DNA of 64,000 nt from Eubacteriales bacterium (GTDB lineage: Bacteria; Bacillota; Clostridia; Oscillospirales; CAG-272): positions 13,226-77,225 of the forward strand of contig JBGVRH010000059.1 in NCBI GenBank assembly GCA_045128275.1. The letters run 5' to 3'. This document shows, piece by piece, positions 16,886-60,304 of the stretch. How positions within the stretch are numbered: the first letter of the stretch is position 1; every line of letters begins with the position of its first letter. Made by a program: the position numbers and the translations under genes. Under the pieces are notes generated by a model, which worked only from the letters and a program-made list of their open reading frames with translations, was not told the origin of the DNA and did no database searches.

Positions 16886-16914
16886 ATTATACCGCATAAG
16901 GAGGAATTTGTCAA
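16886..16914 (-). promoter_or_regulatory. sigma-A promoter of proS
   Basis: Minus strand TTGACA, 17 nt spacer, TATAAT. Confidence 0.65.
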
Positions 16915-19109: not shown

Positions 19110-19648
19110 ACCCGATACCCCCTTTCCGCAAGGTACGCCCGTAGTTTCTCGCGGGTCTTGCTGAGCCGCTTATAGACCGTCTTGGGTGCCAGCTTCACGG
19201 CCTCCGCCAGCTCCTCCACGGGATAGGAGAACCAGTAGCGTCCCATAAAGATCACGCGGTCGCTCTCCTCCAGGTCGGCCAGAAAGCCGTTGAGCAGCTC
19301 GGCCAGCTCGCTTGCATCCTCCATGGAGGCGGGGATGCAGTTCTCCAGCTCGTCCAGGGGAAGGGTCATGTCCCGATCCCGCCGTTCTCTTCGCAGATCG
19401 CGGAGGCGATTGAGGGACAGGTTGCGGGCGATGCGGCAGACAAAGGCGCAGAGGGAGTCGGGCCTCGTGGGGGGGATGGTGTTCCAGGTCTTCAGGTAGG
19501 TGTCGTTGACGCACTCCTCGGCGTCGGGGCGGCTTTGCAGGATGTTCATGGACACCTGCATACAGGCTTTGCCGTAGCTCTTGTCGGTCTCGGCGATGGC
19601 CTGCTCGTTGCGGTCAAAATACAGAGCAATGATATCTTGGTCGTTCAT
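19106..19648 (-). CDS. ECF-type sigma-70 family sigma factor, cassette 1, 180 aa
   Basis: Region 2 (...DAEECVNDTYLKTW...) and region 4 (...TVYKRLSKTREKLRAYL) are present. Length and two-domain layout are typical of group 4 sigmas. Confidence 0.85.
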   Translation of the reverse strand: MNDQDIIALYFDRNEQAIAETDKSYGKACMQVSMNILQSRPDAEECVNDTYLKTWNTIPPTRPDSLCAFVCRIARNLSLNRLRDLRRERRDRDMTLPLDELENCIPASMEDASELAELLNGFLADLEESDRVIFMGRYWFSYPVEELAEAVKLAPKTVYKRLSKTREKLRAYLAERGYRV

Positions 19649-19764
19649 GTTTACCTCCTTGATGGGATCTCTGTACTCTATATGACACCGTTCCCTGTCT
19701 TTTTTCTCCCGTTTTTGCAGAAAAAAACAAAGTTTTTCGGTAAATGCCGTTCGTATTCCCTTAT

Positions 19765-19793
19765 ATCATACGGCGTGGCGGAGGATTTGTCAA
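19765..19793 (-). promoter_or_regulatory. sigma-A type promoter of cassette 1
   Basis: Minus strand TTGACA, 17 nt spacer, TATGAT. Confidence 0.6.
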
Positions 19794-19824
19794 GGGGATG
19801 GGGGATATTTTGCGAAAAAGGGGA

Positions 19825-19855
19825 CAAAAAAGGCCACCGCGCGGGGCGGTGGCCT
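19825..19855 (-). terminator. intrinsic terminator after cassette 2
   Basis: Minus strand AGGCCACCGCCCCGCGCGGTGGCCTTTTTT. Confidence 0.75.
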
Positions 19856-19862
19856 GTAGGGA

Positions 19863-20831
19863 TCAGCTCTCGGGGTCGGGCTGATTATAGCTGTTGAAAA
19901 TGGTAAACGGAAAATCGGGGATGGAATCCGCGGGGGTGTTAATGGCCTCCTCGCCGTCCACGTAGCGGTAGAGGATCGTATACTCGCAGGAGCCAAGGTC
20001 ATTATAAGCATCCCGAATGTCCTTGACACGGTCGAGCATGGCTTCGTTGTACCGATACTGCGCCAGGGTCACGGTCTTTTCCGGATTCCCCGTAAAGTGG
20101 CAGGTTCTGGTATTGAGGTCGGGGTTGAAGAAGACATTCCCCGCTTTGTCAAATCGGAGGTGATACCCCTCCATCATGACCGTGATCTCCTCCCCCTCGC
20201 CGGTCAGCAGATCCCCCGTGACCACTCTTTCATACATATAGATGAAGCCGTACCGGGTATCGGTTTTAAAGGCAACGATCTGGATGTTGGCCTCGCTGTT
20301 TTTGGGAGAGGCAAACGTGAGAACGGAGCGAAGCCCCGAGGAGCCGTTCACCAGAAATTCCACCGTCTTGCACCCATTATTTCCCGAGTCGGTGATGGAG
20401 ACGTAGCTGGTGGTATCGTCGGCACTCGTCAAGGGAAATTGGAAGTAGCTGAGATCGGGGGCTTCGGTCTCCTCCTCGGTCTCGGACTCGTTGGAGGCGG
20501 TCTCCGTTGTCTCGATCCCCTGGGGGAAGGAGGGCCATTCAAAGCCGTCGGAGCCCAAAAGGAACGCTCCCACCGCGATTCCCGCGGCGGCCACGGCACC
20601 CGCTACCAGCGCGATCCAGCCGCCCTTGGCGACCCACGCCCCAAAGCCCGTCTTGACAGCGGCCTCGGTGCCGGACAGGGAGTATAGGGTAGACGGATCC
20701 ACAGCTGCGCCGCTCGCCGCGCCCACAGCACCCGCCGCGCCCACAGCCAAAAGCCCCAGCCGTGTGCCTGCCTCGGTGATGTATTCGTCACGGATGCCGT
20801 TCAAGGCCTCCTGAATGATCTCTCTGCTCAT
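19863..20831 (-). CDS. cassette 2 partner protein: same N-terminal module, unrelated C-terminal domain of unknown family (about 190 aa), 322 aa total
   Basis: The N-terminal 95 aa are nearly identical to cassette 1 ([20 protein letters not shown]...[14 protein letters not shown]...). The C-terminal part has no LRR periodicity. Confidence 0.8.
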   Translation of the reverse strand: MSREIIQEALNGIRDEYITEAGTRLGLLAVGAAGAVGAASGAAVDPSTLYSLSGTEAAVKTGFGAWVAKGGWIALVAGAVAAAGIAVGAFLLGSDGFEWPSFPQGIETTETASNESETEEETEAPDLSYFQFPLTSADDTTSYVSITDSGNNGCKTVEFLVNGSSGLRSVLTFASPKNSEANIQIVAFKTDTRYGFIYMYERVVTGDLLTGEGEEITVMMEGYHLRFDKAGNVFFNPDLNTRTCHFTGNPEKTVTLAQYRYNEAMLDRVKDIRDAYNDLGSCEYTILYRYVDGEEAINTPADSIPDFPFTIFNSYNQPDPES

Positions 20832-21370
20832 ACCCGATACCCCCTTTCCGCAAGGTATGCCCGTAGCTTCTCACGGGTCTTGTGGAGCCGCATATACACC
20901 GCCTTGTCGGTCAGTCCCATCTGTGCGGCCAGGTCGTCGATGGCGTAGGAATACCAGTACCGTCCCATGAAGAGCACGCGGTTGGTCTCGTCCAGACTCT
21001 CTAAAAAGCTATTGAGCAGGGAAGCAAGCTCCCCAGCGTCCTCCATTGCGGCGGGGATGCAGGCCTCCAGCTCCTCAAAGGACACCGTCAGCCCTTGGTT
21101 GCGCTTCTCACGGCGCAGGTCGCGGAGGCGGTTGAGGGACAGGTTGCGGGCGATGCGGCACACAAAGGCGCACAGGGAGCCCGGCTTGGTGGGGGGAATG
21201 GAATTCCAGGTCTTGAGATAGGTGTCACTCACGCACTCCTCCGCGTCGGGACGGCTGTCCAGTATGTTCATGGACACCTGCATACAGACCTTGCCGTAGC
21301 TCTTGTCGGTCTCGGCGATGGCCTGCTCGTTGCGGGCGAAGTACAGGTCGATGATGTCTTGATCGTTCAT
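20828..21370 (-). CDS. ECF-type sigma factor, cassette 2, 180 aa
   Basis: Paralog of 19106..19648 with the same length. Confidence 0.85.
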   Translation of the reverse strand: MNDQDIIDLYFARNEQAIAETDKSYGKVCMQVSMNILDSRPDAEECVSDTYLKTWNSIPPTKPGSLCAFVCRIARNLSLNRLRDLRREKRNQGLTVSFEELEACIPAAMEDAGELASLLNSFLESLDETNRVLFMGRYWYSYAIDDLAAQMGLTDKAVYMRLHKTREKLRAYLAERGYRV

Positions 21371-21482
21371 GATTTCCTCCTTGCTTGGGATATGGTACCT
21401 ATTATGACACCGTTTTCTCGGATTTTTTTCTTGTTTTCGGAAAATATTTCAAAAAATTGTTTTTTTACGGGTGGCTACCTAT

Positions 21483-21511
21483 ATCATACAGGGAAAACGG
21501 GGGTGTGTCAA
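21483..21511 (-). promoter_or_regulatory. sigma-A type promoter of cassette 2
   Basis: Minus strand TTGACA, 17 nt spacer, TATGAT. Confidence 0.6.
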
Positions 21512-21535
21512 GGGGGAGGGGGATTTTTGTGAAGA

Positions 21536-21560
21536 AAAAGGAGCGGCCGAAGGCCGCTCC
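21536..21560 (-). terminator. intrinsic terminator after cassette 3
   Basis: Minus strand GGAGCGGCCTTCGGCCGCTCCTTTTT. Confidence 0.75.
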
Positions 21561-21567
21561 CAAAAGA

Positions 21568-23148
21568 TCAAGGAACGTAATTGTAATGAAAGGTGGCATT
21601 GGATAAGGTGTTGTTGAACTGACCGATGCGGATCCTTCTCCACTGTTTCTCAGAGCCGGCGTAGTAGATGTCCTTTACCCGATAAGCGTAAAATGCACTG
21701 TCGCCAATGAAATCTAAGCTGGTGGGGATCGTGATGGCCTTCATGTAGAAGCAATCCTCAAACGCACCGTTTGCGATCCCGATGGTCCCTTCGCGGCAAA
21801 CCACCTCGGCGACCGATTCATCACACGCCACGATCCAATTCCCTACGTAGGTGACTCCGCCTTCTTGGGCTAAGCCGGTACAGCCCTCAAATGAATTCGC
21901 TCCAATGTGGGTGACACTGTCGGGAATGGTCATGGAGGTGAGGGCCGAGCAGTCTTTGAACGCTCCGTAGTCAATATCCTTTAGACCGCCGGTGACGGTG
22001 ACAGAGGTCAGAGAGGAGCAATTTTTGAATGCGTTCTCGCCAATGGATGTGACCCCTTCGGGAATGACAACGGAGGTCAAGTCGGAGCAGTTCAAAAACG
22101 CATTTTCCCGAATGGCGGGGAAGTCACCGGCAAGGGTAATGGTGGTCAGAGAAATGCAATCCTCGAACGCAGAAGCGCCAAGCTCGGTCACGCTGTCGGG
22201 AATGACCACCGAAGTCAGGTATCGGCAATTTGAGAACGCATGATCTCCGATCACGACCACACCGTCGGGGATCTCGATGGAGGTCAATTTATAACAGCCT
22301 TCAAAAGCATTTTCCAAGATCCCCTTGGTGCCTTCCTTCCACGTGACTTCACTCAGATACAAGTCGCAGTCCACGACCCAATTCCCCACGTAATACAAGC
22401 CTTTTTTCCTTCTTCGGATCTTGGGGGATTCGTCAAACGCCTTATGGCCAACGCTGACCACGCTGTCGGGAACTACGATGGAGGTCAGATCGCAGCAGAA
22501 GAAGAATGCGTATTCTTCAATGTGTGTGACGGTATCGGGAATCACCACCGAGGTGATGGCCCGACCACTGAATGCCTCCCTGCCAATGGCGGTCACGATA
22601 TCCCCGTCGGGAGATACGGGTGGGATCACAATATCCATGTTCGGCCAGGGGTCGTTACTTTCTGCGACATAGCAGGTCCCGTCGCCGTTGGAGACGTATT
22701 TCAGGAACTCAGAGGGGGCAAGGGTCTCGGATTCAATCTCGGGTTCGGTTTCAGTTTCGGTTTCAGCTTCGGTTTCAGTTTCGGTTTCGGTTTCCGACTC
22801 GGGCTTGCTCTCGCCCTCGCCCTCCTCGAATCGGCTCTGCTCCTGCTCGGCGGAAGTCTCGTCCTCCGTCCCCACAGGCGGCGTATCCCCGCCGTTGCCC
22901 AGCAGGAACGCTCCCACAGCCACCCCCGCGGCTACCACCACGCCCGCTACCAGCGCGATCCAACCGCCCTTAGCCAGCCACGCGCCAAAGCCTGTCTTGG
23001 CGGCGGTGCCGCTCCCCGCGGCAGAAAGGGAATAGAGAGGCGCGCCCGCCGCGCCGCCCAGCAGGGACAGGGGCAGAGCCTCGGTCACGAACTCGTCGGG
23101 GAGCTTCCCCATGATCTCAAAAAGCTGTTCGCCCGTCAGTCGGCTCAT
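21568..23148 (-). CDS. cassette 3 partner protein: related N-terminal module, acidic E/T linker and BspA-type LRR domain, 526 aa
   Basis: Start taken as MSRLTGEQLFEIMGKLPDEFVTE, whose ATG at 23148 overlaps the sigma stop by 4 nt as in cassettes 1 and 2. Contains repeats IPDSVTxIGxxAFxxCxxLTSV. Confidence 0.8.
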   Translation of the reverse strand: MSRLTGEQLFEIMGKLPDEFVTEALPLSLLGGAAGAPLYSLSAAGSGTAAKTGFGAWLAKGGWIALVAGVVVAAGVAVGAFLLGNGGDTPPVGTEDETSAEQEQSRFEEGEGESKPESETETETETEAETETETEPEIESETLAPSEFLKYVSNGDGTCYVAESNDPWPNMDIVIPPVSPDGDIVTAIGREAFSGRAITSVVIPDTVTHIEEYAFFFCCDLTSIVVPDSVVSVGHKAFDESPKIRRRKKGLYYVGNWVVDCDLYLSEVTWKEGTKGILENAFEGCYKLTSIEIPDGVVVIGDHAFSNCRYLTSVVIPDSVTELGASAFEDCISLTTITLAGDFPAIRENAFLNCSDLTSVVIPEGVTSIGENAFKNCSSLTSVTVTGGLKDIDYGAFKDCSALTSMTIPDSVTHIGANSFEGCTGLAQEGGVTYVGNWIVACDESVAEVVCREGTIGIANGAFEDCFYMKAITIPTSLDFIGDSAFYAYRVKDIYYAGSEKQWRRIRIGQFNNTLSNATFHYNYVP

Positions 23149-23687
23149 ACCGTGTACCCCCCTTCGGTCAGAAAGTCTCGGAGCTTGTTGCGGGTCTTTT
23201 GGAGGCGCAGAGCCACGGCGTTGGGGGTCAGCTCCCAATGGGTAGCCAGATCCTTCACCGACATACCGTGCCAGTAGCGACCTACGAAGAGCCTACGCTC
23301 GGCCTCGTCCAGCCCCCGCAGGAATTCCGCGAGAAGCTCGGGGAGGATCTCGGCGTGGGACTCGTCCACGGGGATGCAGTCCTCCAGCTCCTCGAAGGAC
23401 ACCGTCAGCTCGCGGTTGCGGCGGTCACGGCGCAGGTCGCGGAGACGGTTGAGGGACAGATTCCGCGCGATACGGCAGACGAAGGCGCACAGGGAGTTGG
23501 GCTTGGTGGGCGGGATGGAGTTCCACGTTTTCAGATAGGTATCGTTGACGCACTCCTCGGCGTCGGGATGGCTTTGCAGGATGTTCATGGATACCTGCAT
23601 ACAGGCCTTGCCGTAGCTCTTGTCGGTCTCGGCGATTGCCTGCTCGTTGCGAGCAAAATACAGAGCGATGATCTCTTGGTCGTTCAT
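23145..23687 (-). CDS. ECF-type sigma factor, cassette 3, 180 aa
   Basis: Paralog of the two sigma genes above. Region 2 is conserved and region 4 has diverged. Confidence 0.85.
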   Translation of the reverse strand: MNDQEIIALYFARNEQAIAETDKSYGKACMQVSMNILQSHPDAEECVNDTYLKTWNSIPPTKPNSLCAFVCRIARNLSLNRLRDLRRDRRNRELTVSFEELEDCIPVDESHAEILPELLAEFLRGLDEAERRLFVGRYWHGMSVKDLATHWELTPNAVALRLQKTRNKLRDFLTEGGYTV

Positions 23688-35484: not shown

Positions 35485-37542
35485 TTAGTGCAGTCTCGTA
35501 CCCTCAGGCACGCGCTCGTCCACGAAGATGACCTGACAGCCGCAGGCGTTGTTGGTGGCGGCCAGCAGCATACCGTTGGAGGTCACGCCCGTGATACGGG
35601 TGGGAGCCAGGTTGGCCAGAACGATGATCTTCTTGCCCAGCAGCTCCTCGGCGGTGTAGTCGTGCTTGATGGAGGACACGATGACGCGCTCGCCGATACC
35701 GTCGTTCAGGGTCAGCTTGTAGCAGGAGTGAGACTTGCGGATCTCCTGCACCTTGACGATCTTGCACACGCGGATATCCATCTTGCCGAACTCGTCGATG
35801 GAGACCATCTCCTCGGAAATGGGCTGGACGGGGTCAGGCTCGCCGTAGACCTTCTCCACAGGGGCGTTGGCGGCGGCCTCGGCATCGGCTACGGCCTGAT
35901 CGGCGGCGATCTCCTCGGCGGTCTGCTCATAGGAGAAGTCCAGGAGACGGACGTAGCGGGCGGGGTCGATGGCGTAGAGGAAGAGGTACAGACGGGGGCC
36001 GCGCTCCTTGTCGATGAGGAGCTTGTAGACGGTCTTGAAGAAGTTGCCCTGGAGACCCTTCAGCTCCTTGTCGGGCTTGTCCTCGCCGAAGACCCGCTTG
36101 GGAATGGCGTACAGCTCGGCGTTCAGAGCGTCCAGATCGTAGCCGCCTGCGGCCAGATAGGCGTGGAGCAGGGCGATCTCACGCTTCTCCTCGTCGGAGA
36201 GGGTGTTGTAGACCTCAAAGTTGCGGGTCTCGCGCAGTCTGTTGACCTGCTCGGGAGCGCACTGCTCCAGCCAGTACTTGGCGCGGTCGAGACGGCCCAT
36301 GAACTGCTCGGCGGTGTAGGGAGTGCCGATCTTCTCAAAGACGGTCTCCAGCATGGGGACGTTGAAGTCCACGATGGAGCCCAGCTGCACCAGAAGACCC
36401 TGGGGCACGGTGCTGACCTCGTGACCCTCCACCACGCAGTTGTACATGATGGCGGCGTCGCGCTCGTTGCACTTGCCCGCGCGGTAGTCCTCGTACATCT
36501 TGTCGAACTCGAAGTACTGGCGCAGGATACCGTCATCGAAGCAGAAGTCGAAGGCCTTGGTGGGCTCGGTCTTGGAGTAGAGCCACAGAATGACCTCGGG
36601 CTCGTAGAGCTTGAGCATGGTGTCGGGAGTCAGATTCAGACCCGAAGAAGAGGACATCTTGCCCGCCAGACCCTTGATGCCGATGAACTCATAGCCCTGG
36701 AACAGGGGAGGCTCATAGCCGAAGATCTTCTTGGAAATCACCTTGGCATTGGAGTAGGAGCCGGTGGGCGCGGCGTGATCCTTTCCGCCGGGCTCGAAGT
36801 CAACGCCCTCGTGTCTCCAGCGCATGGGCCAGTCGATCTTCCAGCCCAGCTTGCAGTTGAAGTTCTCGGTGAAGTTGATGTGGCCGTGGTAGCCGCAACG
36901 GCAGGTGTAGTCGGCCTCGGTGCAGTCATCCGAGATGTTCTCCAGGGTGGTGAAGTCGGTGCCGCACTCGGGGCAGAAGACGGAGACGGGGGAGTACTTG
37001 GCCTTCTCGGCATCGTGCTCGGCGGCTCTCTCCTCCTCGGACTTGGTCATGTCCTTGGTCTTGAAGGAATCCAGGATCTCAAAGATCTCCTCGCGCTTGC
37101 GGAGGGACTCGATGATGGCCTGGGTGTACGCGCCGGAACGGTACATGGATCCCTGATGGCGGTAGTCCATCTCAATGCCGAACTTCTTCATGGACTCGGT
37201 GAACTCGGCCTTGAAATGCTCGGCGTAGTTGGCGTGACAGCCCCAAGGATCGGGCATGTCCACGTAGGGGGTACCGATGTACTTGTCGTAAGCGTCGCCC
37301 ACAACGGCCTGCACGTTGGCAGGGATCTTGCGGCAACGGTCAAAGTCATCCCAGGAGAACAGAAGGCGAGCCTTCTTGCCCTGCTTCTCGATGGCCTTGC
37401 AGACAAAGAGGGAGGTGGCGATATCGCGGAAGTTACCGATATGCACCGAGCCCGAGGGGCTGATGCCCGCGGCGCAGACGTACTCTTCCTTTTCGGGGTT
37501 TCTGGCGATCACTCTCTGGGCGATCTCTTCTGACCAATGCAT
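35485..37542 (-). CDS. lysK: class I lysyl-tRNA synthetase fused to a C-terminal Trbp111/EMAP-like tRNA-binding domain
   Basis: HWSEEIAQ...GISPSGSVHIGNFRD..., ...KIDWPMRWRHEGVDFEPGGKDH..., ...KMSSSSG match class I LysRS as I recall the Borrelia and archaeal enzymes. The last about 110 aa (...DIRVCKIVKVQEI...KLTLNDG...IVLANLAPTRI.GV.S.GMLLAA) look like a tRNA-binding OB fold. Confidence 0.85.
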   Translation of the reverse strand: MHWSEEIAQRVIARNPEKEEYVCAAGISPSGSVHIGNFRDIATSLFVCKAIEKQGKKARLLFSWDDFDRCRKIPANVQAVVGDAYDKYIGTPYVDMPDPWGCHANYAEHFKAEFTESMKKFGIEMDYRHQGSMYRSGAYTQAIIESLRKREEIFEILDSFKTKDMTKSEEERAAEHDAEKAKYSPVSVFCPECGTDFTTLENISDDCTEADYTCRCGYHGHINFTENFNCKLGWKIDWPMRWRHEGVDFEPGGKDHAAPTGSYSNAKVISKKIFGYEPPLFQGYEFIGIKGLAGKMSSSSGLNLTPDTMLKLYEPEVILWLYSKTEPTKAFDFCFDDGILRQYFEFDKMYEDYRAGKCNERDAAIMYNCVVEGHEVSTVPQGLLVQLGSIVDFNVPMLETVFEKIGTPYTAEQFMGRLDRAKYWLEQCAPEQVNRLRETRNFEVYNTLSDEEKREIALLHAYLAAGGYDLDALNAELYAIPKRVFGEDKPDKELKGLQGNFFKTVYKLLIDKERGPRLYLFLYAIDPARYVRLLDFSYEQTAEEIAADQAVADAEAAANAPVEKVYGEPDPVQPISEEMVSIDEFGKMDIRVCKIVKVQEIRKSHSCYKLTLNDGIGERVIVSSIKHDYTAEELLGKKIIVLANLAPTRITGVTSNGMLLAATNNACGCQVIFVDERVPEGTRLH

Positions 37543-37612
37543 AGCTGGTCTCCTTTCTCTGTATATGGCATAAAAGTTTTCAAATAAAATGTGAATGACA
37601 CATAGATAATAT

Positions 37613-37641
37613 AGTATAACACATTTTTTCGCGCTTTGCAA
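37613..37641 (-). promoter_or_regulatory. sigma-A promoter of lysK
   Basis: Minus strand TTGCAA, 17 nt spacer, TATACT. Confidence 0.5.
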
Positions 37642-44834: not shown

Positions 44835-47033
44835 TTATGCGGTGGCGCCGTCCTCGCGGGAGGAGCGGTCGTCTGCTTTGAACTGATCGGGGAACTGGAG
44901 CTTGTATTCGGCGATGGCGGCTATCAGAAGCTCGTAGGCCTCGGCAATACCGCCACTGACCTGGGCTCCAGCCATGTCGAAGTGTCCGCCGCCCTCCAGC
45001 TTTTCCATGATGAGCTGGACGTTGATCTTTCCCTTGGAGCGGGCGGAGATGGCGATGCCGCCGCTGACGGGAGCGAAGGCGAAGGAGGCCTCCACGCCCC
45101 GCAGGCTGAGGAGCTTATCCGCGGCCTTGGAGGCGGCGATGCGGTCGTTGGGGGTGGGGATGTGATCCTCGCTCAGCCAGGTGATGGCGAAGACCTCGGC
45201 GTGGACGTGGGTGTGGGCGTCGAAATCGCCCGCCACCAGCAGCTCGTCGATGCGCTCGTTGAAGAACTCCCGGGCGACACCCGTATGGGCGTTGCGGCTG
45301 TACAGGTAGTAGGTCACGTCGAAGGTCTGGGCGCCTGCCGAGCGGGTGAAGTTGTGGGTGTCCAGCATGATGCCCGAGAGGAGCAGGTTGGCCTCCTCCT
45401 TGTGGAGGGTCTCGGCGTATTCGCTCTGCTGGAGGATCTCGGCGATGATCTCGCTGGCCGAGGACTTGGTGGCCTCGATATAGTGGAGGAAGGGAGTGAA
45501 GGGAAGCTCATCCACCAGGCGGTGGTGGTCAATGACCGCGATGCCCGATACACCGTCCGCGGCGGGGATACAGCTCACCAGCTGGGGAGCCTCGAAGATG
45601 GCGGGGTTGTTGACGTCGGTGATGATCAGCACCGTGTGGGTGGTGACCGATTGCTGGGCGGCGGCCTTGTCGATGAAGACACTCTCGTACTCGGGCAGGG
45701 TGGCCAGATGAGCCCGACAGATGGCGAAGGTATCGCAGGTCTTGTTGGTGACGATGTGAACGGGCACCCGCTCCTTGCCCTTGGCCGCCAGGATACTGCG
45801 GCACAGGCGGTAGGCGCCTACGGCCGAGCCGATGGCGTCGAAATCGGGATTGGCGTGACTCATGATGAGGACGCGGTCGCAGTCGGACAGACGCCGCTCC
45901 AGGAGATGGGCGCTGACACGGGAGGAAATGGAGGTGTTGGACTCCAGGGTCTTGTGGGTGCCGCCAAAGTAGGACAGGCCGCCCACACCGCTGCGCTGGA
46001 GGGCTACCTGGTTTCCGCCTCTTTGCAGAGCCATATCCAGAGCCGCCGAGGCCGCCTTTTCCTTTTCCTGCATACTGCCGTCGATATCCGCGATGCCCAT
46101 GGACACCGACAGAGGGAAGGAGTTGTCACCCACGCGGATGTTCATGATATCGTCCAGGATGGAGAAGCCGTCGCGGACGCAGTCGCCCAGCCTTTCAGCC
46201 GAGAAGAGGGCCAGGTACTTGTCGCGGTCATACTCGCGGAGCATACCCCCCATGCCCTCCACCCAGGCGGTGAGGGTCTCCTCGATGAGGTTGGCGGTGG
46301 CGCGGTAGTTGGCACGGACGAACTGGGTCAGCTCCTGGAGGTTATCCAGCATGATGTAGGCCAGCACGACCCGCTCTCGGGCGGTCTCCTCGGCCAGCTC
46401 CAGGTAGTCGTTGACGTCACGGAACAGAAGGAAGAAGTAATGATCCCGCTCGCGGGGCATGAGGTAGCAGTCCAGGCTGTAGCGGCGGCCGTCGGTGAGG
46501 CGGGCTACGGTGTCCTCCCCGTCGCTCTCGTCGGTGGGGGCAGGGGACAGCACCGAGGGCGCGTCCTCCCCCGCGGATTCGGGGGAACGGGCGGCGGCGG
46601 TGACCTTTTCAAAGGAGATGCCGGGGCAAAGCTCCTCCAGGGGGATGTTGCAAACAGGAGAGCGGAAGCCCAGGATCCGTTGCAGGGCGGTGTTGATGAC
46701 CCGCACCATGCCGTCGCCGTTGACTACGGCGTAGGGAATGTCCACCTCGGCGCGGAACATACGGTAGACGTCCCCGCTGAGCTGCTCGGCGGCCTCCTCG
46801 GCTCGCTTCATTTCGGCGTACCGCAGGACGTAGGAGAGCAGGATGGCACCCGCCGTTACCAGGTAGAACACCAGCACGGCCAGGGCGATGAGGGGAAGAC
46901 GGGGAAGCTTCAGGTAGGCCATGAGGGAGACCAGGCCCAGAAGCAGCAGACCCTCGGCCACGGTGATGGCGAAGGGGAGACGGAGATCCACCCACATGGA
47001 GCCGCGGGCGGAGGAATTCTTCTTGGGAGACAT
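44835..47033 (-). CDS. gdpP: GdpP/YybT-like DHH-DHHA1 phosphoesterase (c-di-AMP phosphodiesterase family)
   Basis: Two N-terminal TM helices, PAS-like and degenerate GGDEF-like middle region, DHH (...IDHHR...) and DHHA1 (GGGH) C-terminus. Conserved yybS-gdpP-rplI-dnaB order. Confidence 0.85.
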   Translation of the reverse strand: MSPKKNSSARGSMWVDLRLPFAITVAEGLLLLGLVSLMAYLKLPRLPLIALAVLVFYLVTAGAILLSYVLRYAEMKRAEEAAEQLSGDVYRMFRAEVDIPYAVVNGDGMVRVINTALQRILGFRSPVCNIPLEELCPGISFEKVTAAARSPESAGEDAPSVLSPAPTDESDGEDTVARLTDGRRYSLDCYLMPRERDHYFFLLFRDVNDYLELAEETARERVVLAYIMLDNLQELTQFVRANYRATANLIEETLTAWVEGMGGMLREYDRDKYLALFSAERLGDCVRDGFSILDDIMNIRVGDNSFPLSVSMGIADIDGSMQEKEKAASAALDMALQRGGNQVALQRSGVGGLSYFGGTHKTLESNTSISSRVSAHLLERRLSDCDRVLIMSHANPDFDAIGSAVGAYRLCRSILAAKGKERVPVHIVTNKTCDTFAICRAHLATLPEYESVFIDKAAAQQSVTTHTVLIITDVNNPAIFEAPQLVSCIPAADGVSGIAVIDHHRLVDELPFTPFLHYIEATKSSASEIIAEILQQSEYAETLHKEEANLLLSGIMLDTHNFTRSAGAQTFDVTYYLYSRNAHTGVAREFFNERIDELLVAGDFDAHTHVHAEVFAITWLSEDHIPTPNDRIAASKAADKLLSLRGVEASFAFAPVSGGIAISARSKGKINVQLIMEKLEGGGHFDMAGAQVSGGIAEAYELLIAAIAEYKLQFPDQFKADDRSSREDGATA

Positions 47034-47066: not shown

Positions 47067-48332
47067 TCAGCTCCCTCCAAAGGGGTCGTCGTCATCCTCG
47101 TTGAATTTCAGCTTGGAGGTGACGGCCTCGAAGATATGGCCGATGACCTCTACGGCGGCCAGGACGAAGGGGGCGATGAAAATGAGACAGAAGGCCAGGA
47201 TGATGACGTAGAACAGGCAGCCCATGGCGCGGGGGCCCTTCTTGGACAGACCTCGGGTGACCCGAAGCAGTCCCGCCAGAGCCAGCCCGGGGAGCAGGAT
47301 CAGGTAGATGTTCTCAAAGACCACGCCCGAGAGGGTAGAGGTGGTTCCCAGATCCAGCATGACCGCCAGGTAGGCGATGAGGAAGACCACGCAGGAGATG
47401 AGGCTCATTTCAAAGGCCTTGACCCGATCGGTGACGCACTCCTCGAACTCAAAGGCCCGCAGAGCGGCGTGCTGGATGGACTGGCAGGCGGTGGAGAAGA
47501 TGAGAACCGTCACCACGCAGGCGCCGGGGAGGAGGTTGAAGGCGTTGTTGACCTTGTTCTCCACGCTCTCATAGGCGGTCATCTTCTCCCACAGCTCGAT
47601 CATCTCGGGAGTGAGATCCTCGGGCATGGGCTGGGTGTGGATGGACAGGATCAGCTCCTGACGGAAGCCCTCCAGAGCCTCGGCCAGCACGGTGGGCTCC
47701 AGAGTCCCCAAGGCGCGGAGCAGGGAGATCACGAGGGGCACGGCCAGGGACAAGCCCAGGGCCAGAGCTGTTGCGCAGATCACACCGGTACGGGTGGGGC
47801 CGTCCTCCTTTTCGGCGGCGCGGCGGGTACCCGAGGCCAGGGCCCAGGCGGCGGGCCAGGGAACCAGCACCGCCAACGCCCCGATGGGATCGCGGGACAG
47901 AAGGGACGTGACACCGTAGGCCAGCAGAGGGATCAGGGGGATCCAGGGAATATGGGCTTTCTTTTGGGTGGCGATCAGCACCGAGCCTTCGCCCACCACG
48001 AAGACCAGTCCGCAGAGAAGCCCCGCGGGGAAAATGCTTCTTGTGTAGAAGGTCAGGAACGCTCCCACCGTGATGAGCAGGAGAAGGGTTCCCTTGGCCG
48101 TGCGGGTCGCCCGCCACAGGTGGAAGACCAACAGCAGAATGGCAACGGCGGCGAAGATCTCGGGGACGCCGGGGGCTTCCTCGGGGGCGGGAACAAAGCA
48201 GGTCGCGCTGACCCCCAGGAGGGCCGAGGCGAGGAGCAGGAACAGGTGGAGTATGATACCCGCGGCACCCTGTATCCCGCGGCGGGGAATGGGGCAGAGG
48301 GGCGCGGGGGCGGCTTTCGGAGTGGGATTCAA
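47067..48332 (-). CDS. YybS-like (DUF2232) polytopic membrane protein; start uncertain
   Basis: Membrane protein directly upstream of gdpP, as in Bacillus. There is no in-frame ATG near the 5' end, so I chose TTG at 48332, 9 nt after AAAGGA. Confidence 0.6.
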   Translation of the reverse strand: MNPTPKAAPAPLCPIPRRGIQGAAGIILHLFLLLASALLGVSATCFVPAPEEAPGVPEIFAAVAILLLVFHLWRATRTAKGTLLLLITVGAFLTFYTRSIFPAGLLCGLVFVVGEGSVLIATQKKAHIPWIPLIPLLAYGVTSLLSRDPIGALAVLVPWPAAWALASGTRRAAEKEDGPTRTGVICATALALGLSLAVPLVISLLRALGTLEPTVLAEALEGFRQELILSIHTQPMPEDLTPEMIELWEKMTAYESVENKVNNAFNLLPGACVVTVLIFSTACQSIQHAALRAFEFEECVTDRVKAFEMSLISCVVFLIAYLAVMLDLGTTSTLSGVVFENIYLILLPGLALAGLLRVTRGLSKKGPRAMGCLFYVIILAFCLIFIAPFVLAAVEVIGHIFEAVTSKLKFNEDDDDPFGGS

Positions 48333-48398
48333 GGCCGGGCATCCTTTCTTCGGTCTACCGATGGGAAACAGTATCCGAGCATACTTATAGATTATAAT

Positions 48399-48427
48399 AG
48401 TATACCATAATTTTTCGGATTTGTAAA
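48399..48427 (-). promoter_or_regulatory. candidate sigma-A promoter of the yybS-gdpP-rplI-dnaB block
   Basis: Minus strand TTTACA, 17 nt spacer, TATACT. Confidence 0.4.
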
Positions 48428-48641
48428 CATGCTTTCGAGGAATTTTTGGAAATTTCCCTGCGAGAATTGTGAATTTTCTTTCTTTATGGTATAGAACACA
48501 TCCCCACACGGGGGAAAATCCTCCCCGAAGCCCTTTGGAAGGACGCCCGAGCCGTCCTGCTTCATCCTCACCGATCCAAGGGGGCTTTTTGTCTATTTTT
48601 ATCAAATTCAAAAAATATCCAAAATATTTTGCGAAAACCCC

Positions 48642-48670: not shown

Positions 48671-48988
48671 AGTAAACTGCATTATAATCGCTTTCACTAT
48701 GGGCATCTCTGCCCTTCGGCAGGGTATCCGGTCAAAGAAAGGCGATTTTACGAGGCTTTCCTTGTGCAATTCAACGAAACCGCGGAGCGAGCGTTCCATA
48801 CGACTTCGACCGAGACATTTGCCGTGTCCTTGGGCTGTCCGTTTGGCTCATGAGGTCCCTGACGTGCGCGTGACGCGATTTCCGGGAATGTACAGCGAGA
48901 TCCTCCCATATATCCCCCGCCGCCGTCCGGGAATTCGCCCGCTCGGTGCCACCTTCGATCAATGATTTGAAATGGAGTGATTAACCGA

Positions 48989-51900
48989 ATGATCAACCTG
49001 AAAGATCAGAGACTCGGCGAGAATGTCCGTAAGTCCTTCTCCCGCACCCGCTTCAATCTGGAGCTGCCCGACCTGGTAGAGATCCAGACCAAGTCCTACA
49101 AGTGGTTCCTCGAGGAAGGCCTGACCGAGGTCTTGCACGAGGTCTCCCCCATTACCGATTTCTCCGGTAATCTCCTCATTGAGTTCATTTCCTACAGCCT
49201 GGACACCTCCAACCCCAACTATTCCGTGGAGGAGTGCAAGGAGCGCGACGTCAACTACGCCGCCCCCCTGAAGGTCAACGTCCGTCTGACCAACAAGCAG
49301 ACGGGCGAGGTCAAGCAGACCGACATCTTCATGGGCGAGTTCCCCCTCATGACCGAGAACGGTACCTTCGTCATCAACGGTGCCGAGCGCGTCATCGTTT
49401 CCCAGATCATCCGTTCTCCCGGTATGTACTACGCCTCCGAGATCGACAAGACCCGTAAGCGTACCTACGCCGCCCAGATCATCCCCTAGCGCGGCGCATG
49501 GCTGGAGTATGAGACCGATATCAACGGCGTCATCTACGTCCGCATCGATAAGACCCGTAAGGTTCCCATGACCATGTTCATCCGCGCCCTGGGCCCCGAG
49601 ACCCGCGACGAGATCTACGCCCTGCTGGGTGAGGACGAGCGTCTGAAGGTCACCTTCGACAAGGACGAGTGCGAGAACCTGGCCGCCGCCAACCACACCT
49701 CCGCCCACGTGGAGGCTCTGAAGGAGATCTACAAGAAGCTCCGTCCCGGTGAGCCCGCCATCGTGGAGTCCGCCGAGACCCTCATCAACAACTACTTCTT
49801 CGATCCCAAGCGTTACGACATCGCCCCCGTCGGCCGCTACAAGTTCGACAAGAAGGTCGCCATCTCCTCCCGTATCTCCGGCCGCAAGCTGGCCGAGGCA
49901 GCCGTGTCTCCCTTCACCGGTGAGGTGATCTACGAGGCCGGCACCGTTCTGACCCACGATATGGCCCTCCAGGTGGAGCGCGCCGGTGTCAACGAGGTCG
50001 TGCTGGAGCTGGACAACGGCGAGACCATGAAGGTCCTGTCCAACAACACCCTGGAGCCCGAGTACATCATCGGTATGGATCTGGCTGACTGCGGCATCAA
50101 GGAGAGAGTCCGCATCGCTGTCCTCAACCAGATCATGCAGGATGCCGAGGGCGATCTGGACGTGATGAAGCAGCTTGTCAAGGAGAGAGCCGCCGAGCTT
50201 TGCCCCAAGCACATCACCAAGGACGATATCTTCGCTTCCATTAACTATATGCTGAACCTGACCCACGGCGTGGGCGAGGTGGACGACATCGACCACCTGG
50301 GTAACCGCCGTATCCGTTCCGTGGGCGAGCAGCTCCAGAACCAGATCCGTATCGGCTTCGTCCGTATGGAGAAGATCATCAAGGAGCGCATGACCACCCA
50401 GGATAACGATAAGCTGACCCCCCAGGCGCTCATCAACATCCGCCCCGTGGCCACCGTCATCCGTGAGTTCTTCGGTTCCTCTCAGCTGTCCCAGTTCGCT
50501 GACCAGAACAACCCCCTGGCCGAGCTGACCCACCGCCGCCGTCTGTCGGCTCTGGGCCCCGGCGGTCTCTCCCGTGACCGCGCCTCCTTCGACGTCCGTG
50601 ACGTGCACTACACCCACTACGGCCGTATGTGCCCCATCGAGACCCCCGAAGGTCCCAACATCGGTCTGATCTCCTACCTGACCACCTACGCTCGCATCAG
50701 CGAGTACGGCTTCATCGAGGCCCCCTACCGTAAGGTGGTTCACGAGACCGACGAGAACGGCAACCCCGTCCACCGCGTCACCGACGAGGTGGTGTATATG
50801 ACCGCTGACATGGAGGATCGCTTCATCGTCGCCCAGGCAAACGAGCCTCTGGACGAGAACGGCTGCTTCGTGAACAAGAAGGTCACTGCCCGCGAGACCA
50901 CCGAGATCGCCTCCATCGACGCCGCCAAGATCGACTACATGGACGTGTCTCCTAAGATGGTGGTGTCCGTGGCAACCGCTATGATCCCCTTCCTGGAGAA
51001 CGACGATAACTCCCGTGCACTGATGGGTGCGAACATGCAGAAGCAGGCAGTGCCTCTGATGGTCACCGACTCTCCCATCGTCGGTACCGGTATGGAGTAC
51101 AAGGCCGCCGTGGATTCCGGCGTGGTCATCGTCGCCCGCAACGCAGGCCGCGTGGAGCGCGTGGAGGCCGACAAGATCGTCATCGTCACCGACGAGGGCG
51201 TCAAGGACACCTACCAGCTTCGCAAGTTCAAGAGAACCAACCAGGGCACCTGCTTCAACCAGAGACCCATCGTCAAGTTCGGTCAGTTGGTGGAGAAGGG
51301 CCAGGTCATCGCGGACGGCCCCGCTACCTCCAAGGGTGAGGTCGCTCTGGGTAAGAACGCCCTCATCGGCTTCATGACCTGGGAAGGCTACAACTACGAG
51401 GACGCAGTCCTGCTCAACGAGAGACTGGTCCGCGACGACGTGTACACCTCCCTCCATATCGAGGAGTACACCCACGAGGCCCGCGACACCAAGCTGGGCC
51501 CGGAGGAGATCACCCGTGAGATCCCCAACGTCGGCGAGGACGTGCTGAAGGATCTGAACGCCGAGGGTATCGTCAAGAAGGGTACCGAGGTTCGCGCCGG
51601 TGACATCCTGGTGGGTAAGATCACCCCCAAGGGCGAGACCGAGCTGACCGCTGAGGAGAGACTCCTTCGCGCCATCTTCGGGGAAAAGGCCCGCGAGGTT
51701 CGTGATACCTCCCTCCGCCTGCCCCACGGTGAGTCGGGCGTGGTGGTGGACATCCGCGTCTTCTCCCGCGAGGCCGGCGACGATCTGCCCGCCTCTGTCA
51801 ACCGTGTGGTCAAGGTCTACATCGCCCAGAAGAGAAAGATCTCCGTGGGTGATAAGATGGCAGGCCGCCACGGTAACAAGGGTGTCGTTTCCCGCATCCT

Positions 51901-52957
51901 GCCTCCCGAGGATATGCCCTTCCTGCCCGACGGCACTCCCCTGGATATCGTTCTGAACCCCCTGGGCGTGCCTTCCCGTATGAACATCGGTCAGGTGCTG
52001 GAGGTTCACCTGGGTATCGCCTCCCGCCGCCTCGGCTGGAAGATCATGACCCCCGTGTTCGACGGTGCCAACGAGCGAGACATCTCCGAGTGCCTCCAGA
52101 TGGCTGACTACAGCCGTCCCCTGTTCGCCGGTGAGAACCCCGAGGGTAAGGATCTGTTTGAGCTGACCTACGACGAGGAAGGCAACAAGCAGTATCGCAA
52201 GCTCACCCCCGACGAGAAGGGCAACACCGCCTACGTGGAGTCCCTCCGCGTGGCCGACGGCCTGCGCCTCTTCGACGGTAAGACCGTGCTGTACGACGGC
52301 CGTACCGGTGAGCCCTTCGATAACCCTGTTACCGTGGGTATCATGTACTACCTCAAGCTGCACCACCTGGTTGACGATAAGATCCACGCCCGCTCCAACG
52401 GTCCCTACTCGCTGGTCACCCAGCAGCCTCTCGGCGGTAAGGCCCAGTTCGGCGGACAGAGATTCGGTGAGATGGAGGTCTGGGCCCTGGAGGCCTACGG
52501 CGCCGCCTACACCCTGCAGGAGATCCTCACCGTCAAGTCCGACGATATCACCGGCCGCCGCAAGGCTTATGAGGCCATCATCAAGGGTCAGAACATTCCT
52601 ACCCCCGGTGTGCCTGAGTCCTTCAAGGTGCTGGTCAAGGAGCTCCAGGCTCTGGCCCTGGATATCCGCGTCCTGAACAGCAAGGGCGAGGAGATCGACC
52701 TGGCTACCCTGGGCGCAGACGACGACGGTCCTACCTACCGCCGCCACAATCCCCGTCTGGATCGCCACATCATGGATGAGGACGATACCGACGCCGCCGT
52801 GGGCCAGACCGTGGCCACCGACGCTCTCTCCGAGGGCTACCTCGTGGAGAAGAGCGAGCTGGACGGCTACGAGATGAGTGGCCGCGAGGATGACTTCTAT
52901 GAGGAGGAGATCGAGTTTGAGGCCGAGTCCTACGAGGACGAGTCCTACGACGAGTGA
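48989..52957 (+). CDS. rpoB: DNA-directed RNA polymerase beta subunit, interrupted by a single in-frame TAG at 49487..49489
   Basis: ORFs 48977..49489 and 49568..52957 share one frame. Reading through gives an uninterrupted RpoB sequence (...[16 protein letters not shown]...RIDKTRKVP...FIRALG...), and all downstream conserved blocks are present. Confidence 0.9.
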
Positions 52958-53064: not shown

Positions 53065-56000
53065 GTGGAGCGTAACGAAATTTCATCCATTAAGATCGGT
53101 TTGGCATCTCCGGAAATGATCCGCAAGTGGTCCTTTGGCGAAGTCGAAAAGCCTGAGACCATCAACTACCGCACCCTGAAGGCCGAGATCGGCGGCCTCT
53201 TCTGCGAGCGTATCTTTGGCCCGACCAAGGACGGCGCTTGTATGTGCGGCAAATATAAGAATTCCCACAGTAAAGAGGTCATCAAGTGCGAGAAGTGCGG
53301 CGTGGACGTCACCACCAAGAAGGTGCGCCGCGAGCGCATGGGTCACATTGAGCTGGCCTCCCCCGTATCCCACATCTGGTACTTCAAGGCCATCCCCTCC
53401 CGTATGGCCCTGGTGCTGGATATCTCCCCCAAGCAGCTGGAGCAGGTGCTGTATTTCGCTGAGAACGTGGTGCTGGATCCCGGCAACACCCCCCTCATGA
53501 CCGGTACCGTCCTCTCCGAGAAGCAGTACGTGGAGTACCGTGAGATGTACGGCAACGAGTTCCGCGTGGGCATGGGTGCCGAGGCCATCAAGGAGCTGCT
53601 GGCCGCCATCGATGTAAACGAGCTCTCCGCTCAGCTCAAGAGCGATCTGGAGCGCGCCTCCGGTCAGAAGAAGACCCGTATCATCAAGCGTCTGGAGGTC
53701 ATCGAGGCCTTCCGCACCTCCGGCAACAAGCTGGAGTGGATGGTGCTGGACGTTCTGCCCGTCATTCCCCCCGACATCCGTTCCATGGTGCAGCTGGACG
53801 GCGGCCGTTTCGCCTCCTCCGACCTCAACGAGCTGTACCGCCGTGTCATCGCCCGTAACAACCGTCTCAAGAAGCTTCTTGAGATCCATACCCCCGACAT
53901 CGTCATCCGCAACGAGAAGAGAATGCTCCAGGAGGCTGTCGATGCTCTGATCGACAACGGCCGCCGCGGTAAGCCCGTTACCGGCCCCTCCAACCGTCCC
54001 CTCAAGTCTCTGTCCGAAATGCTCCGCGGTAAGCAGGGCCGTTTCCGTCAGAACCTGCTGGGTAAGCGCGTGGACTACTCCGGCCGTTCTGTTATCGTCG
54101 TCGGTCCTACCCTGAAGATCTACCAGTGCGGTCTGCCTAAGGAGATGGCTCTGGAGCTCTTCAAGCCCTTCGTGGTCAAGAGACTGGTGGAGATGGGCAA
54201 GGCTACCAACGTCAAGGAAGCCCAGAAGAAGATCGAGCGCGTGTTCCCCGAGGTCTACGACGCCCTGGAGAACGTCATCAAGGAGCATCCCGTGCTTCTG
54301 AACCGCGCACCTACCCTGCACCGTCTGTCCATCCAGGCCTTCGAGCCTGTGCTGGTTGAGGGCCGCGCCATCAAGCTGCACCCCCTGGTGTGTACCGCAT
54401 TCAACGCCGACTTCGACGGCGACCAGATGCCTGTACACGTCCCCCTGTCCGTGGAGGCTCAGGCCGAGGCCCGCTTCCTCATGCTGTCCGCCAACAACCT
54501 GCTGAAGCCTGTGGACGGTAAGGCCGTCACCGTGCCTACCCAGGATATGATCCTCGGCTCCTACTACCTCACCATGGATAAGCCCGGTGAGCCCGGCGAG
54601 GGCCGTTGCTTCCGCAACGTGGACGAGGCTATGATGGCCTACGCCAACCATCAGCTGGGTATCCACGCTCCCATCAAGGTGCGTATCACCCGCGAGTTCG
54701 AGGAGACCGACGCCGAGGGCAATACCGTCACCGTCGAGCGCACCAAGCTGGTGGAGAAGAACGTCACCCTTGGCCGTCTGATCTTCAACGAGGCCATTCC
54801 TCAGGGCATCGGCTTCAACAAGAAGCGCACCGACGACTTCGATCTCGAGGTCTCCGAGGTGGTCAAGAAGAAGCAGCTGGGTCAGATCATCGACTGCTGC
54901 ATCCGCGCCCGCGGTACCGCCGAGTGCGCCGAGATGCTGGATAAGATCAAGGCTATGGGTTACAAGTATTCCACCCAGGCTTCCTTCTCCATCTCGGTCT
55001 ACGATATGACCATTCCTCCCGAGAAGAAGGGCTTCCTCGACGAGGCTCAGAAGAAGGTGGACGTCATCACCCGTCACTTCATGCGCGGTGAGCTGTCCGA
55101 GGAGGAGCGTTACCAGGCCGTTATCAAGATCTGGAACCAGACCACCGATAACGTCACCGGCGCGCTGACCAACTCCTTCTCCACCTACAATCCTATCAAG
55201 ATCATGGCAGACTCCGGCGCCCGTGGTTCCATGACCCAGATGAGACAGCTGGCCGGTATGCGCGGTCTGATGTTCTCTGCCACCGGTAAGACCATGGAGC
55301 TTCCCATTAAGTCCAACTTCCGCGAGGGTCTGAACATCACCGAGTACTTCATGGGTGCCCGTTCCTCCCGTAAGTCCCTGTCGGATACCGCACTTCGTAC
55401 CGCAGACTCGGGTTACCTGACCCGCCGTCTGGTGGATGTCTCCCAGGAGGTCATCATCCGCGAGATCAAGTGTAACACCACCAAGGGCGCTTGGGTCAAC
55501 GACGTCATCGACGAGAAGGACAAGAACGTCCTGGAGCCTCTGGCAGACCGTATCATCGGTCGCTTCACCATGGGTGAGGTTGTCCATCCCGAGACCGGCG
55601 AGATCCTGATCCCCGACGATACCATGATCACCGAGGAGATGGCTTCCGCCATCACCAAGGCCGGTATCACCTCGGTTCAGATCCGTACCGCCATCCAGTG
55701 CCACGCCCGCTACGGCCTCTGCGCTCACTGCTACGGTGCCGACCTGGCATCCGGTAAGCTGGTTTCCGTCGGTGAGGCCGTCGGTATCATCGCCGCTCAG
55801 TCCATCGGTGAGCCCGGTACCCAGCTGACCATGAGAACCTTCCACTCCGGTGGTGTCGCAGGTTCCGATATTACCCAGGGTCTTCCCCGAGTCGAGGAGC
55901 TCTTCGAGGCTCGCGCTCCCAAGAAGGCCGCTATCATGGTTGAGCAGAACGGTATCGCCCGCATTCAGCCCAATCCCGACGTGCCTGGCATGAACGACGT

Positions 56001-56661
56001 CACCGTCCACGACGAGAACGGCGTTGAGCTGGCTAAGTACCCCATCCCCTACGGCATGCGTCTCGCCATCACCGACGAGCAGCCCGTGGAGATCGGTCAG
56101 TCCCTCACCGAGGGCTCCAAGGCTCCCGCCGATATCATGCGTATCCAGGGCCTGGATGCTGTCTACGAGTACATCATCAAGGAGATCCAGAAGGTGTACC
56201 GTTCCCAGTCGGTTAACGTCAACGATAAGCACATCGAGATCATCGCCCGTCAGATGACCCGTAAGCTCCGCATCACCGACCACGGCGATACCACCCTGCT
56301 GGACGGCTCCACCGTCGACCTGTCCGACCTCGAGGAGGCAAATGCCGAGCTCGACGTCCGCATCGAGGCCGGTGAGACCGAGCTCAAGCACGCCGAGGGC
56401 GAGCCTGTGCTGCTGGGTATCACCAAGGCATCTCTGGCTACCGAGTCCTTCATGTCCGCCGCCTCCTTCCAGGAGACCACCAAGGTGCTGGCCGAGGCCG
56501 CGATCCGCGGTAAGGTCGATCACCTCCGCGGTCTGAAGGAGAACGTCATCATCGGTAAGCTCATCCCCGCCGGTACCGGTATGTCCTGCTATAAGGAGAT
56601 CACCGTCGAGGAGACCGCCAAGCTGGAGGCCGCCGAGGAGAGCGACGAGTCCGCTTCCTGA
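53065..56661 (+). CDS. rpoC: DNA-directed RNA polymerase beta' subunit
   Basis: GTG start after GGAGAAG; zinc motif CMCGKY...CEKCGV; catalytic NADFDGDQM; 1198 aa. Confidence 0.95.
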
Positions 56662-58219: not shown

Positions 58220-60304
58220 ATGGCAAGAGAGTATTCGCTTGAGCATACTCGGAATATCGGCATCATGGCTCACATCGATGCCGGTAAGACCACTACGACC
58301 GAGCGTATCCTGTTCTACACCGGTAAGACCCATAAGCTGGGCGAGACCCACGAGGGTGGCGCCACCATGGACTGGATGGAGCAGGAGCAGGAGAGAGGTA
58401 TCACCATTACCTCCGCGGCTACCACCTGTTACTGGAACGATAACCGCATCAATATCATCGACACCCCCGGCCACGTGGACTTCACCGTTGAGGTGGAGCG
58501 TTCCCTGCGCGTCCTGGACGGTTCTGTGACCGTCTTCTGCGCTAAGGGCGGTGTTGAGCCCCAGTCTGAGACCGTTTGGCGTCAGGCTGATAAGTATCGC
58601 GTGCCCCGTATGGCTTACGTCAACAAGATGGACATCACGGGCGCCGACTTCTATCATGTTCTGGACATGATGAGAGACAGACTCCACGCAAATCCCGTGC
58701 CCCTGCAGCTGCCCATCGGTAAGGAGATGACCTTCCGCGGTATCATCGACCTGCTGAACATGGAGGCTGACGTCTACTACGACGAGCTGGGTAAGGACGT
58801 CCGCATTGAGCCTATCCCCGAGGACATGGTTGAGCTGGCTGAGCAGTACCGCGCCGAGCTGGTGGAGGCTGTCGCTTCTACCGACGAGGAGCTGATGGAG
58901 AAGTACCTCTGCGACGAGGAGCTGACCATCGAGGAGCTCAAGGGCGCTATCCGCCGCGCAACCATCAACAACGAGATCGTTCCCGTCGTTTGCGGTTCCT
59001 CTTACCGCAACAAGGGCGTGCAGAAGATGCTGGACGCCGTCGTCGACTATATGCCCTCTCCTCTGGACATCCCCGCTATCAAGGGTGTGAACCCCGATAC
59101 CGGTGACGAGGACGAGCGCCCTGCTTCCGATGACGCTCCCTTCTCCGCTCTGGCGTTCAAGATCATGACCGATCCCTTCGTGGGTAAGCTCTGCTACTTC
59201 AGAGTCTACTCCGGTATGATCAATGCCGGCGAGACCGTCTACAACTCCACCAGAGGTAAGCGCGAGCGTCTGGGTCGTATCCTCATGATGCACGCAAACA
59301 CCCGTCAGGATATCGATGCCTGCTACACCGGTGACATCGCTGCCGCTATCGGCGTGAAGAACACCACCACGGGTGATACCTTCTGCGACGAGAAGAACCC
59401 CATCATCCTCGAGTCTATGGAGTTCCCCGAGCCCGTTATCCGCGTGGCTATTGAGCCCAAGACCCGCGCCGGCCAGGAGAAGATGGGCATCGCCCTCGCC
59501 AAGCTGGCTGAGGAGGATCCTACCTTCCGTGCCTACACCGACGATGAGACCGGTCAGACCATCATCGCAGGTATGGGTGAGCTTCACCTGGACATCATCG
59601 TTGAGCGTCTGCTCCGCGAGTTCAAGGTGGAGGCAAACATCGGTAAGCCTCAGGTTGCCTACAAGGAGACCATCCGCAAGGCAGTCGATCAGGATACCAA
59701 GTACAAGCGTCAGTCCGGTGGTTCCGGTCAGTACGGTCACGTTAAGATCACCATCGAGCCCAACGAGCCCGGTAAGGGTTACGAGTTCGTCAACGCTGTG
59801 GTGGGCGGTGCAATTCCCAAGGAGTACATCCCCGCTGTTGACAACGGTATCCAGGGCGCTATGCAGACCGGTGTTCTGGCAGGCTACAACGTCGTTGACG
59901 TGAAGGTCACCCTGAACGACGGTTCTTACCACGACGTCGCCTCGTCCGCGATGGCGTTCCTGATCGCCGGCTCCATGGCCTTCAAGGAGGCTATGAGAAA
60001 GGCCGATCCCGTCCTCACCGAGCCTATGATGAAGGTCGTTACCATCGTCCCTGAGGAGTACATGGGCGACGTCATCGGTGACTTCAACTCCCGCCGCGGC
60101 CAGATCCAGTCCATGGAGGCCGGTAACGGTGGTATCGAGGAGATCACGGCCTACGTGCCCCTCTCCTGCATGTTCGGCTACGCGACCGACCTGCGTTCCA
60201 AGACCCAGGGTCGCGGCCTCTACTCCATGGAGCCCAGCCACTTCGCAGAAGTGCCCAAGAGCATCCAGGAGGAAATCGTTAAGGCTCGCGGTAAGAACAA
60301 CTGA
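58220..60304 (+). CDS. fusA: elongation factor G
   Basis: [21 protein letters not shown]...DTPGHVDFT...; 694 aa. Confidence 0.97.

Follow-up and report, generated by a model that had tools for sequence, protein, structure and literature searches.

An in-frame TAG interrupts rpoB, the gene of the RNA polymerase beta subunit, in a bacterial chromosome segment. Is this codon read as an amino acid, does it divide or silence an essential gene, or does it not belong to the genome at all? The initial annotation had listed four explanations without ranking them: a sequencing, assembly or consensus error, a nonsense variant within the population, tolerated read-through by amber suppression, and recoding of a rare codon. 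The presence of TAC and an intact RpoB in conspecific contigs favours the first two, and the last two found no support. The comparisons of sequence described below suggest that the feature is most likely a private one-base defect of one assembly and not a change of the genetic code. All coordinates are relative to the first letter of the window, which is the full 64,000-nt stretch analysed.

Reading frame and stop codon usage in the window

With about 60% G+C, the window is an unremarkable piece of chromosome, and its closest database matches place it in an uncultured gut member of the Clostridia/Oscillospirales. It carries typA, feoAB, metF, metH, proS, three modules of ECF-type sigma factors and leucine-rich repeat (LRR) proteins, holA, a class I lysS, ftsH, hpt, tilS, dnaB, rplI, gdpP and yybS, followed by rpoB-rpoC-rpsL-rpsG-fusA-tuf. 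All of these genes match their Pfam models from end to end, and the window is therefore neither generally decayed nor ridden with frameshifts. The features on which the argument turns are:

48989..52957, + strand: rpoB (RNA polymerase beta subunit), 1322 codons, frame uninterrupted except at codon 167
49454, + strand: G156R (GGT to CGT), found in the window only, 35 nt upstream of the TAG; the Gly is conserved throughout the genus
49487..49489, + strand: in-frame TAG, codon 167 of rpoB, read directly from the sequence
53065..56661, + strand: rpoC, immediately following rpoB, 1198 codons and intact, with an ortholog of the same length in contigs L087 and L088
16977-16979, - strand: the only gene-end TAG of the window, stop codon of a gene for a BspA-type LRR protein (Pfam LRR_5)
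16970-16944, - strand: intrinsic terminator hairpin, beginning 6 nt past the TAG at 16977

As the initial annotation had stated, the open reading frames 48977..49489 and 49568..52957 share one frame, rpoC is intact, and translation across the TAG yields a continuous RpoB. Relatives open with MINLKDQ or MLNLKDQ, and the true start of rpoB is therefore the ATG at 48989, which places the TAG at codon 167 of 1322. In a six-frame scan that took in every stop with 50 open codons on either side, the coding signal at this TAG amounts to 1.03 bits per codon upstream and 1.05 downstream. It is a clear outlier and the sole stop of the window with a strong coding signal on both sides. The runner-up of the scan lies at the yybS/gdpP boundary, an ordinary gene junction: yybS (DUF2232, 47067-48611) and gdpP (44835-47033), both on the - strand, share one frame and are separated by a TGA and 33 nt, and since the two are known as separate neighbours the shared frame is due to chance. 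A count of in-frame TAGs in other conserved genes, proposed at the outset as a check, brought no second case within the window, so that the rpoB codon remains the only in-frame TAG with a two-sided coding signal in about 18,000 codons.

TAG also serves as a terminator in this genome. The stops at 42 gene ends of the window comprise 21 TGA, 20 TAA and a single TAG, the one at 16977, in agreement with the earlier remark that TAG ends only one gene here and is followed at once by a terminator. The position of the hairpin 6 nt past this codon identifies it as a genuine stop. Against an expectation of about 10%, a single TAG in 42 stops is no significant deficit (P ~0.07, an estimate); this baseline was taken from the relatives with a crude ORF filter whose results, affected by shadow ORFs, are too unreliable for any other use.

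The same codon in related assemblies

Among 80 loci from GTDB species representatives with an RpoB identity of 62-80% to the window, the homologous codon is TAC in 23, TAT in 14, AAC in 41 and AAT in 2, and it is a stop in none. This bears out the initial assignment of the position to Tyr or Asn. The 25 loci closest to the window all have Tyr. A full-length RpoB query returned 19 protein clusters at 88-100% identity with about 150 member sequences, all of them uninterrupted. The closest cluster, P0250, is 1322 aa long and located on contigs of up to 78 kb; it is listed at 100% identity, a rounded value, as the codon comparison counts seven amino-acid differences to the RpoB of the window, codon 167 included. 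P0251 follows at 99%, and 17 further clusters at 88-96%. Look-ups of the exact sequences of the RpoB fragments and of RpoC from the window gave no recorded entry.

Four close contigs, each from a different ENA sample, cover the locus: L087 shares 98.5% DNA identity with the window over 22.9 kb, and L088, L089 and L090 share about 95%. All four have TAC (Tyr) at codon 167 and a complete RpoB of 1322 aa. The window differs from the TAC of these contigs, and from that of the sister-species contigs L082 and L083, by one base, a C to G at 49489, so that the stop is indeed a single substitution away from a Tyr codon. TAC likewise occurs in the more distant contig L081, recovered when metagenomes were scanned with a degenerate pattern for the sequence surrounding this codon. 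According to the initial annotation a sense codon at this position would have overturned the stop as a feature of the genome; such a codon, TAC, is present in other assemblies of the species, the source reads of this one lying outside the comparison.

Searches with partial RpoB queries have to be read with care. The matches listed for queries of 583 and 166 aa extend to no more than about 1.75 times the query length, and consequently only broken or contig-truncated rpoB could appear among them. The closest of these matches, P0001 and P0044, are RpoB proteins that end at in-frame TAGs elsewhere in the gene (L082; L083/L084). Truncated matches of this kind hinted at a TAG recoding throughout the genus, an idea that we dropped in view of the abundant intact RpoB obtained with the full-length query. 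A recurrent stop at codon 167 was likewise suspected from matches of 166-172 aa. These turned out to be contig ends or termini of adapter-derived junk, and some of them end past the Tyr (…IPYRGA, …IPYRGAWL). A stop shared by relatives at codon 167 was found neither in the 80 distant loci nor in the close contigs.

Changes that are private to the window relative to L087, L088, L089 and L090 show how the gene has evolved. The rpoB of the window has 19 private codon changes, 17 of which are synonymous. The only non-synonymous ones are G156R and the stop itself, both G/C transversions, 35 nt apart; the probability of such proximity by chance is about 2% (2x36/3969, an estimate). In the 1155 codons downstream of the TAG there is no private non-synonymous change, and the gene has thus never drifted as a truncated gene would. 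The rest of rpoB is under strong purifying selection.

The contig as a whole does not stand out. Private substitutions over 24 kb number 144 in the window and 123 in L087. Their spectrum is normal and dominated by transitions, and G/C transversions account for 15 of the 144. Such symmetric divergence and natural spectrum indicate that the contig is not globally error-rich. On the evidence of this alignment, the two damaging changes in rpoB appear as a local anomaly, and their clustering may reflect either a local patch of errors or a multi-nucleotide mutation. A methylation motif or restriction site as their cause was considered and rejected: the two transversions destroy an ACCGGT and a CCGCGG, the window retains 20 and 53 such sites, respectively, and the other private G/C changes share no common motif. 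Tight clusters of private substitutions are also present at 55582-55603 in rpoC and at 59206-59254 and 59935-59961 in fusA. They include several amino-acid changes and resemble short tracts acquired by recombination from a less closely related strain.

Origin of the stop at codon 167

We consider it probable that the TAG is a consensus or sequencing error, probably one that arose together with G156R. Under this interpretation the real rpoB of the species would encode Tyr-167 and would be translated normally under the standard code. The TAG would then be an isolated C to G at 49489 (TAC to TAG), confined to one assembly, and the wrong consensus base would stem from sequencing, polishing or assembly; G156R, 35 nt upstream, would probably have the same cause. 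As expected of a singleton error, the TAG is private to one assembly and lies one base from a conserved codon. A misassembly through a repeat was discarded, the 45-mer around the site being unique in the window.

The TAG resembles isolated consensus errors of metagenome-assembled genomes (MAGs) in these two respects and in the strong purification of the remaining gene, and comparable singletons are found in other assemblies. In L025 (JAFQEG010000003.1, a goat caecum MAG) an in-frame TAG interrupts rpoC at 7909-7911, in the PTQDM motif. The site is Gln in all 59 other aligned loci, and the TAG is one base from CAG. The rpoB of L059 (JAZUQZ010000031.1, Candidatus Aphodoplasma sp.; 42% G+C) contains a TGA in frame at 5803-5805, at the invariant Trp of a 12-residue RpoB motif. 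Of the other aligned Trp positions in L059, three are TGG and the fourth is Tyr (TAC), and this TGA may be either one more singleton error or a Trp codon as in code 4. Both of these loci belong to the 80 GTDB representatives. Frameshifts split rpoB and fusA in L085 (ERZ28658069 scaffold_842, 37 kb; at 12067 and 19787-19790), and rpoB is also frameshifted in L086 (3.2x coverage), in P0203 (a MAG contig of 1.78 Mb) and in P0227. Broken copies of essential genes are no rarity in such public assemblies. In addition, a single-base change can create a stop in the rpoB of the window in 369 ways, and 289 of these (78%) give TAG, the gene being rich in G+C at third codon positions, so that TAG is the stop to be expected from a random hit.

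However, two observations speak against an error. The contig to which the window belongs is long, 64 kb or more, its divergence statistics are normal and it is not generally error-ridden, which distinguishes the case from isolated consensus errors in MAGs; the error step in our interpretation is one that we infer. Furthermore, contigs of sister species, whose RpoB is about 91-95% identical, carry lone TAGs elsewhere in rpoB: L082 at 2150-2152, at a Tyr/Phe/Leu site, and both L083 and L084 at 11279-11281, at a Gly/Asp/Glu site, so that the TAG positions differ between the two. Counted along the RpoB of the window from the ATG at 48989, the stops fall at codon 650 in L082 (ERZ27316545 k141_115473) and at codon 427 in L083 and L084 (ERZ27297580 k141_948639 and ERZ28633469 scaffold_1539). 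The latter stop was reproduced by two assemblers, in contigs separated by 11 clustered SNPs. It follows that at least some stops of this kind are backed by most reads of their sample. Judging by the naming of the records, L083 and L084 may come from one sample, and their independence is doubtful.

We therefore also have to consider that the TAG is real and marks a dead-end allele, a reading that we regard as rather unlikely. The nonsense mutation would be recent and might have arisen together with G156R in a single multi-nucleotide event. Its carriers would be relic DNA or a subpopulation that is in the minority or does not grow; the assembler would have followed this allele, while the viable population has TAC. 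Two clustered transversions fit a single mutational event, and the agreement of L083 and L084 on another lone TAG suggests that alleles of this type can make up most reads of a sample, a point weakened by their possible origin from one sample. With no non-synonymous change downstream, the allele would have to be very young. Against this reading, a lethal allele should not become the majority path of an assembly graph. Sequence alone does not separate a dead-end allele from a base-calling error.

A viable TAG, read through by a suppressor tRNA, appears very unlikely. Such a tRNA would have a CUA anticodon and would most plausibly insert Tyr, as supF does; it could be encoded on the chromosome or by a prophage in which TAG is a sense codon. 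The change of TAC to TAG at a conserved Tyr is exactly the type of mutation rescued by a supF-like suppressor, and the locus shares this feature, in an essential gene, with suppression by the E. coli supF / tyrT su3+ tRNA-Tyr(CUA). Two of the three lone TAGs in the genus fall at Tyr positions, TAG is a rare terminator in the window and rpoB shows no decay, all of which would suit suppression. By contrast with the E. coli system, no tRNA with a CUA anticodon was found in the window, whose only tRNA is Arg-CCG, or in eight related loci. The rpoB codon is the only in-frame TAG, the TAG at 16977 is followed by a terminator, and the conspecific strains lack the allele, their RpoB and the roughly 150 sequences from the genus being free of in-frame stops. 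The scarcity of TAG terminators is not significant against the baseline of about 10%. The third TAG of the genus at a Gly/Asp/Glu site and the TAG of L025 at a Gln site, moreover, indicate no single amino acid. It is accordingly only a slim prospect that the strain carries an rpoB with both Y167amber and G156R and survives on an amber suppressor tRNA, for example from a TAG-recoded prophage. If this were true, an essential host gene would naturally depend on a suppressor, and the TAGs of L082 and L083/L084 would be further instances.

Programmed readthrough would call for a stop conserved in relatives and a stimulatory structure downstream. The relatives have no such stop, and the 121 nt at 49480-49600 fold no better than shuffled sequences (z = -0.26). 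Rfam gave no match to a known RNA element at the TAG. Both a readthrough-stimulating structure and a known RNA element were thus dropped as explanations.

That rpoB is naturally split into two polypeptides, or is a pseudogene backed by a second rpoB elsewhere, seems highly improbable. Split beta subunits exist in nature, and the two open reading frames in one frame would be consistent with such a gene. A split gene would, however, be expected to restart just past the break, to retain its conserved segments and to be split in relatives as well. From 49490 up to 49568 the frame offers no ATG, GTG or TTG; the first in-frame start after the TAG, the ATG at 49568, lies 26 conserved codons downstream and would drop these 26 residues, and rpoB is continuous at this site in the relatives. 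The initial doubts about a split subunit are thereby upheld, and so is the argument against a decaying pseudogene, for which non-synonymous changes, frameshifts and more stops downstream would be expected: the private changes are synonymous apart from the two named above, and the frame has no shift. The conserved rpoB-rpoC-rpsL-rpsG-fusA-tuf context of the gene likewise argues against a pseudogene backed by a second copy.

A reassignment of TAG to a sense codon throughout the genome or genus, or the use of pyrrolysine, is scarcely credible. The papers found in a literature search report that bacteria have reassigned UGA, that UAG stands for Gln in gut phages, and that archaea have reassigned UAG to pyrrolysine (Pyl) genome-wide, but none of them describes UAG reassignment in a bacterial chromosome. 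The archaeal case concerns some archaea (Kivenson et al. 2025, as cited in the preprint bioRxiv 10.64898/2026.05.24.727570). The TAG inside a frame of an essential gene and the few TAG terminators are reminiscent of the gut phages (code 15, Gln) and of the archaea, and the lone TAGs in sister-species contigs might be added in favour of a reassignment. In contrast to recoded genomes, which have many in-frame TAGs that are conserved among relatives and which would have dropped TAG as a terminator, the window has one in 64 kb. This TAG is private, as L087-L090 have TAC and intact rpoB is abundant in the genus, and TAG still ends a gene at 16977. The genes for pyrrolysine use, which the initial annotation suggested to look for together with a tRNA(CUA), are absent from the Pfam scans of the window ORFs, pylT was likewise not found in the window, and the segment at the TAG folds into no PYLIS-like structure. 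The impression of TAGs in three lineages is an artefact of searches enriched for broken genes.

Consequences for annotation and further features of the window

A genuine and viable TAG would mean that amber suppression occurs naturally, or that UAG is beginning to be reassigned, in the chromosome of a gut member of the Clostridia. Judged by the literature found, a genuine case in a bacterial chromosome would be new, and the data presented here do not support it. As a private one-base defect, the feature has mainly practical value. Annotation pipelines will call rpoB of this genome a pseudogene or two fragments, and base 49489, probably also base 49454, needs checking or correction. Lone in-frame stops in essential genes recur at about the percent level in metagenome assemblies, and for this reason one stop is no evidence for an altered code.

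The remaining features of the window that we recorded are all located on the - strand:

16886-16914: perfect sigma-70 consensus promoter (TTGACA, 17 nt, TATAAT), between the terminator of the LRR gene and proS
16977-23687: three tandem modules, each with an ECF-type sigma factor (180 aa) first and a larger protein after it
19106-19648, 20828-21370 and 23145-23687: the ECF-type sigma factors, 180 aa each
16977-19109 and 21568-23238: two of the three larger module proteins, with BspA-type leucine-rich repeats
35485-37641: lysyl-tRNA synthetase, class I (Pfam tRNA-synt_1f), with a C-terminal tRNA_bind domain

The G+C content of the module region is reduced to about 55-58%. The position of the promoter implies that the start of proS probably lies downstream of the ATG at 17002 that opens its reading frame.
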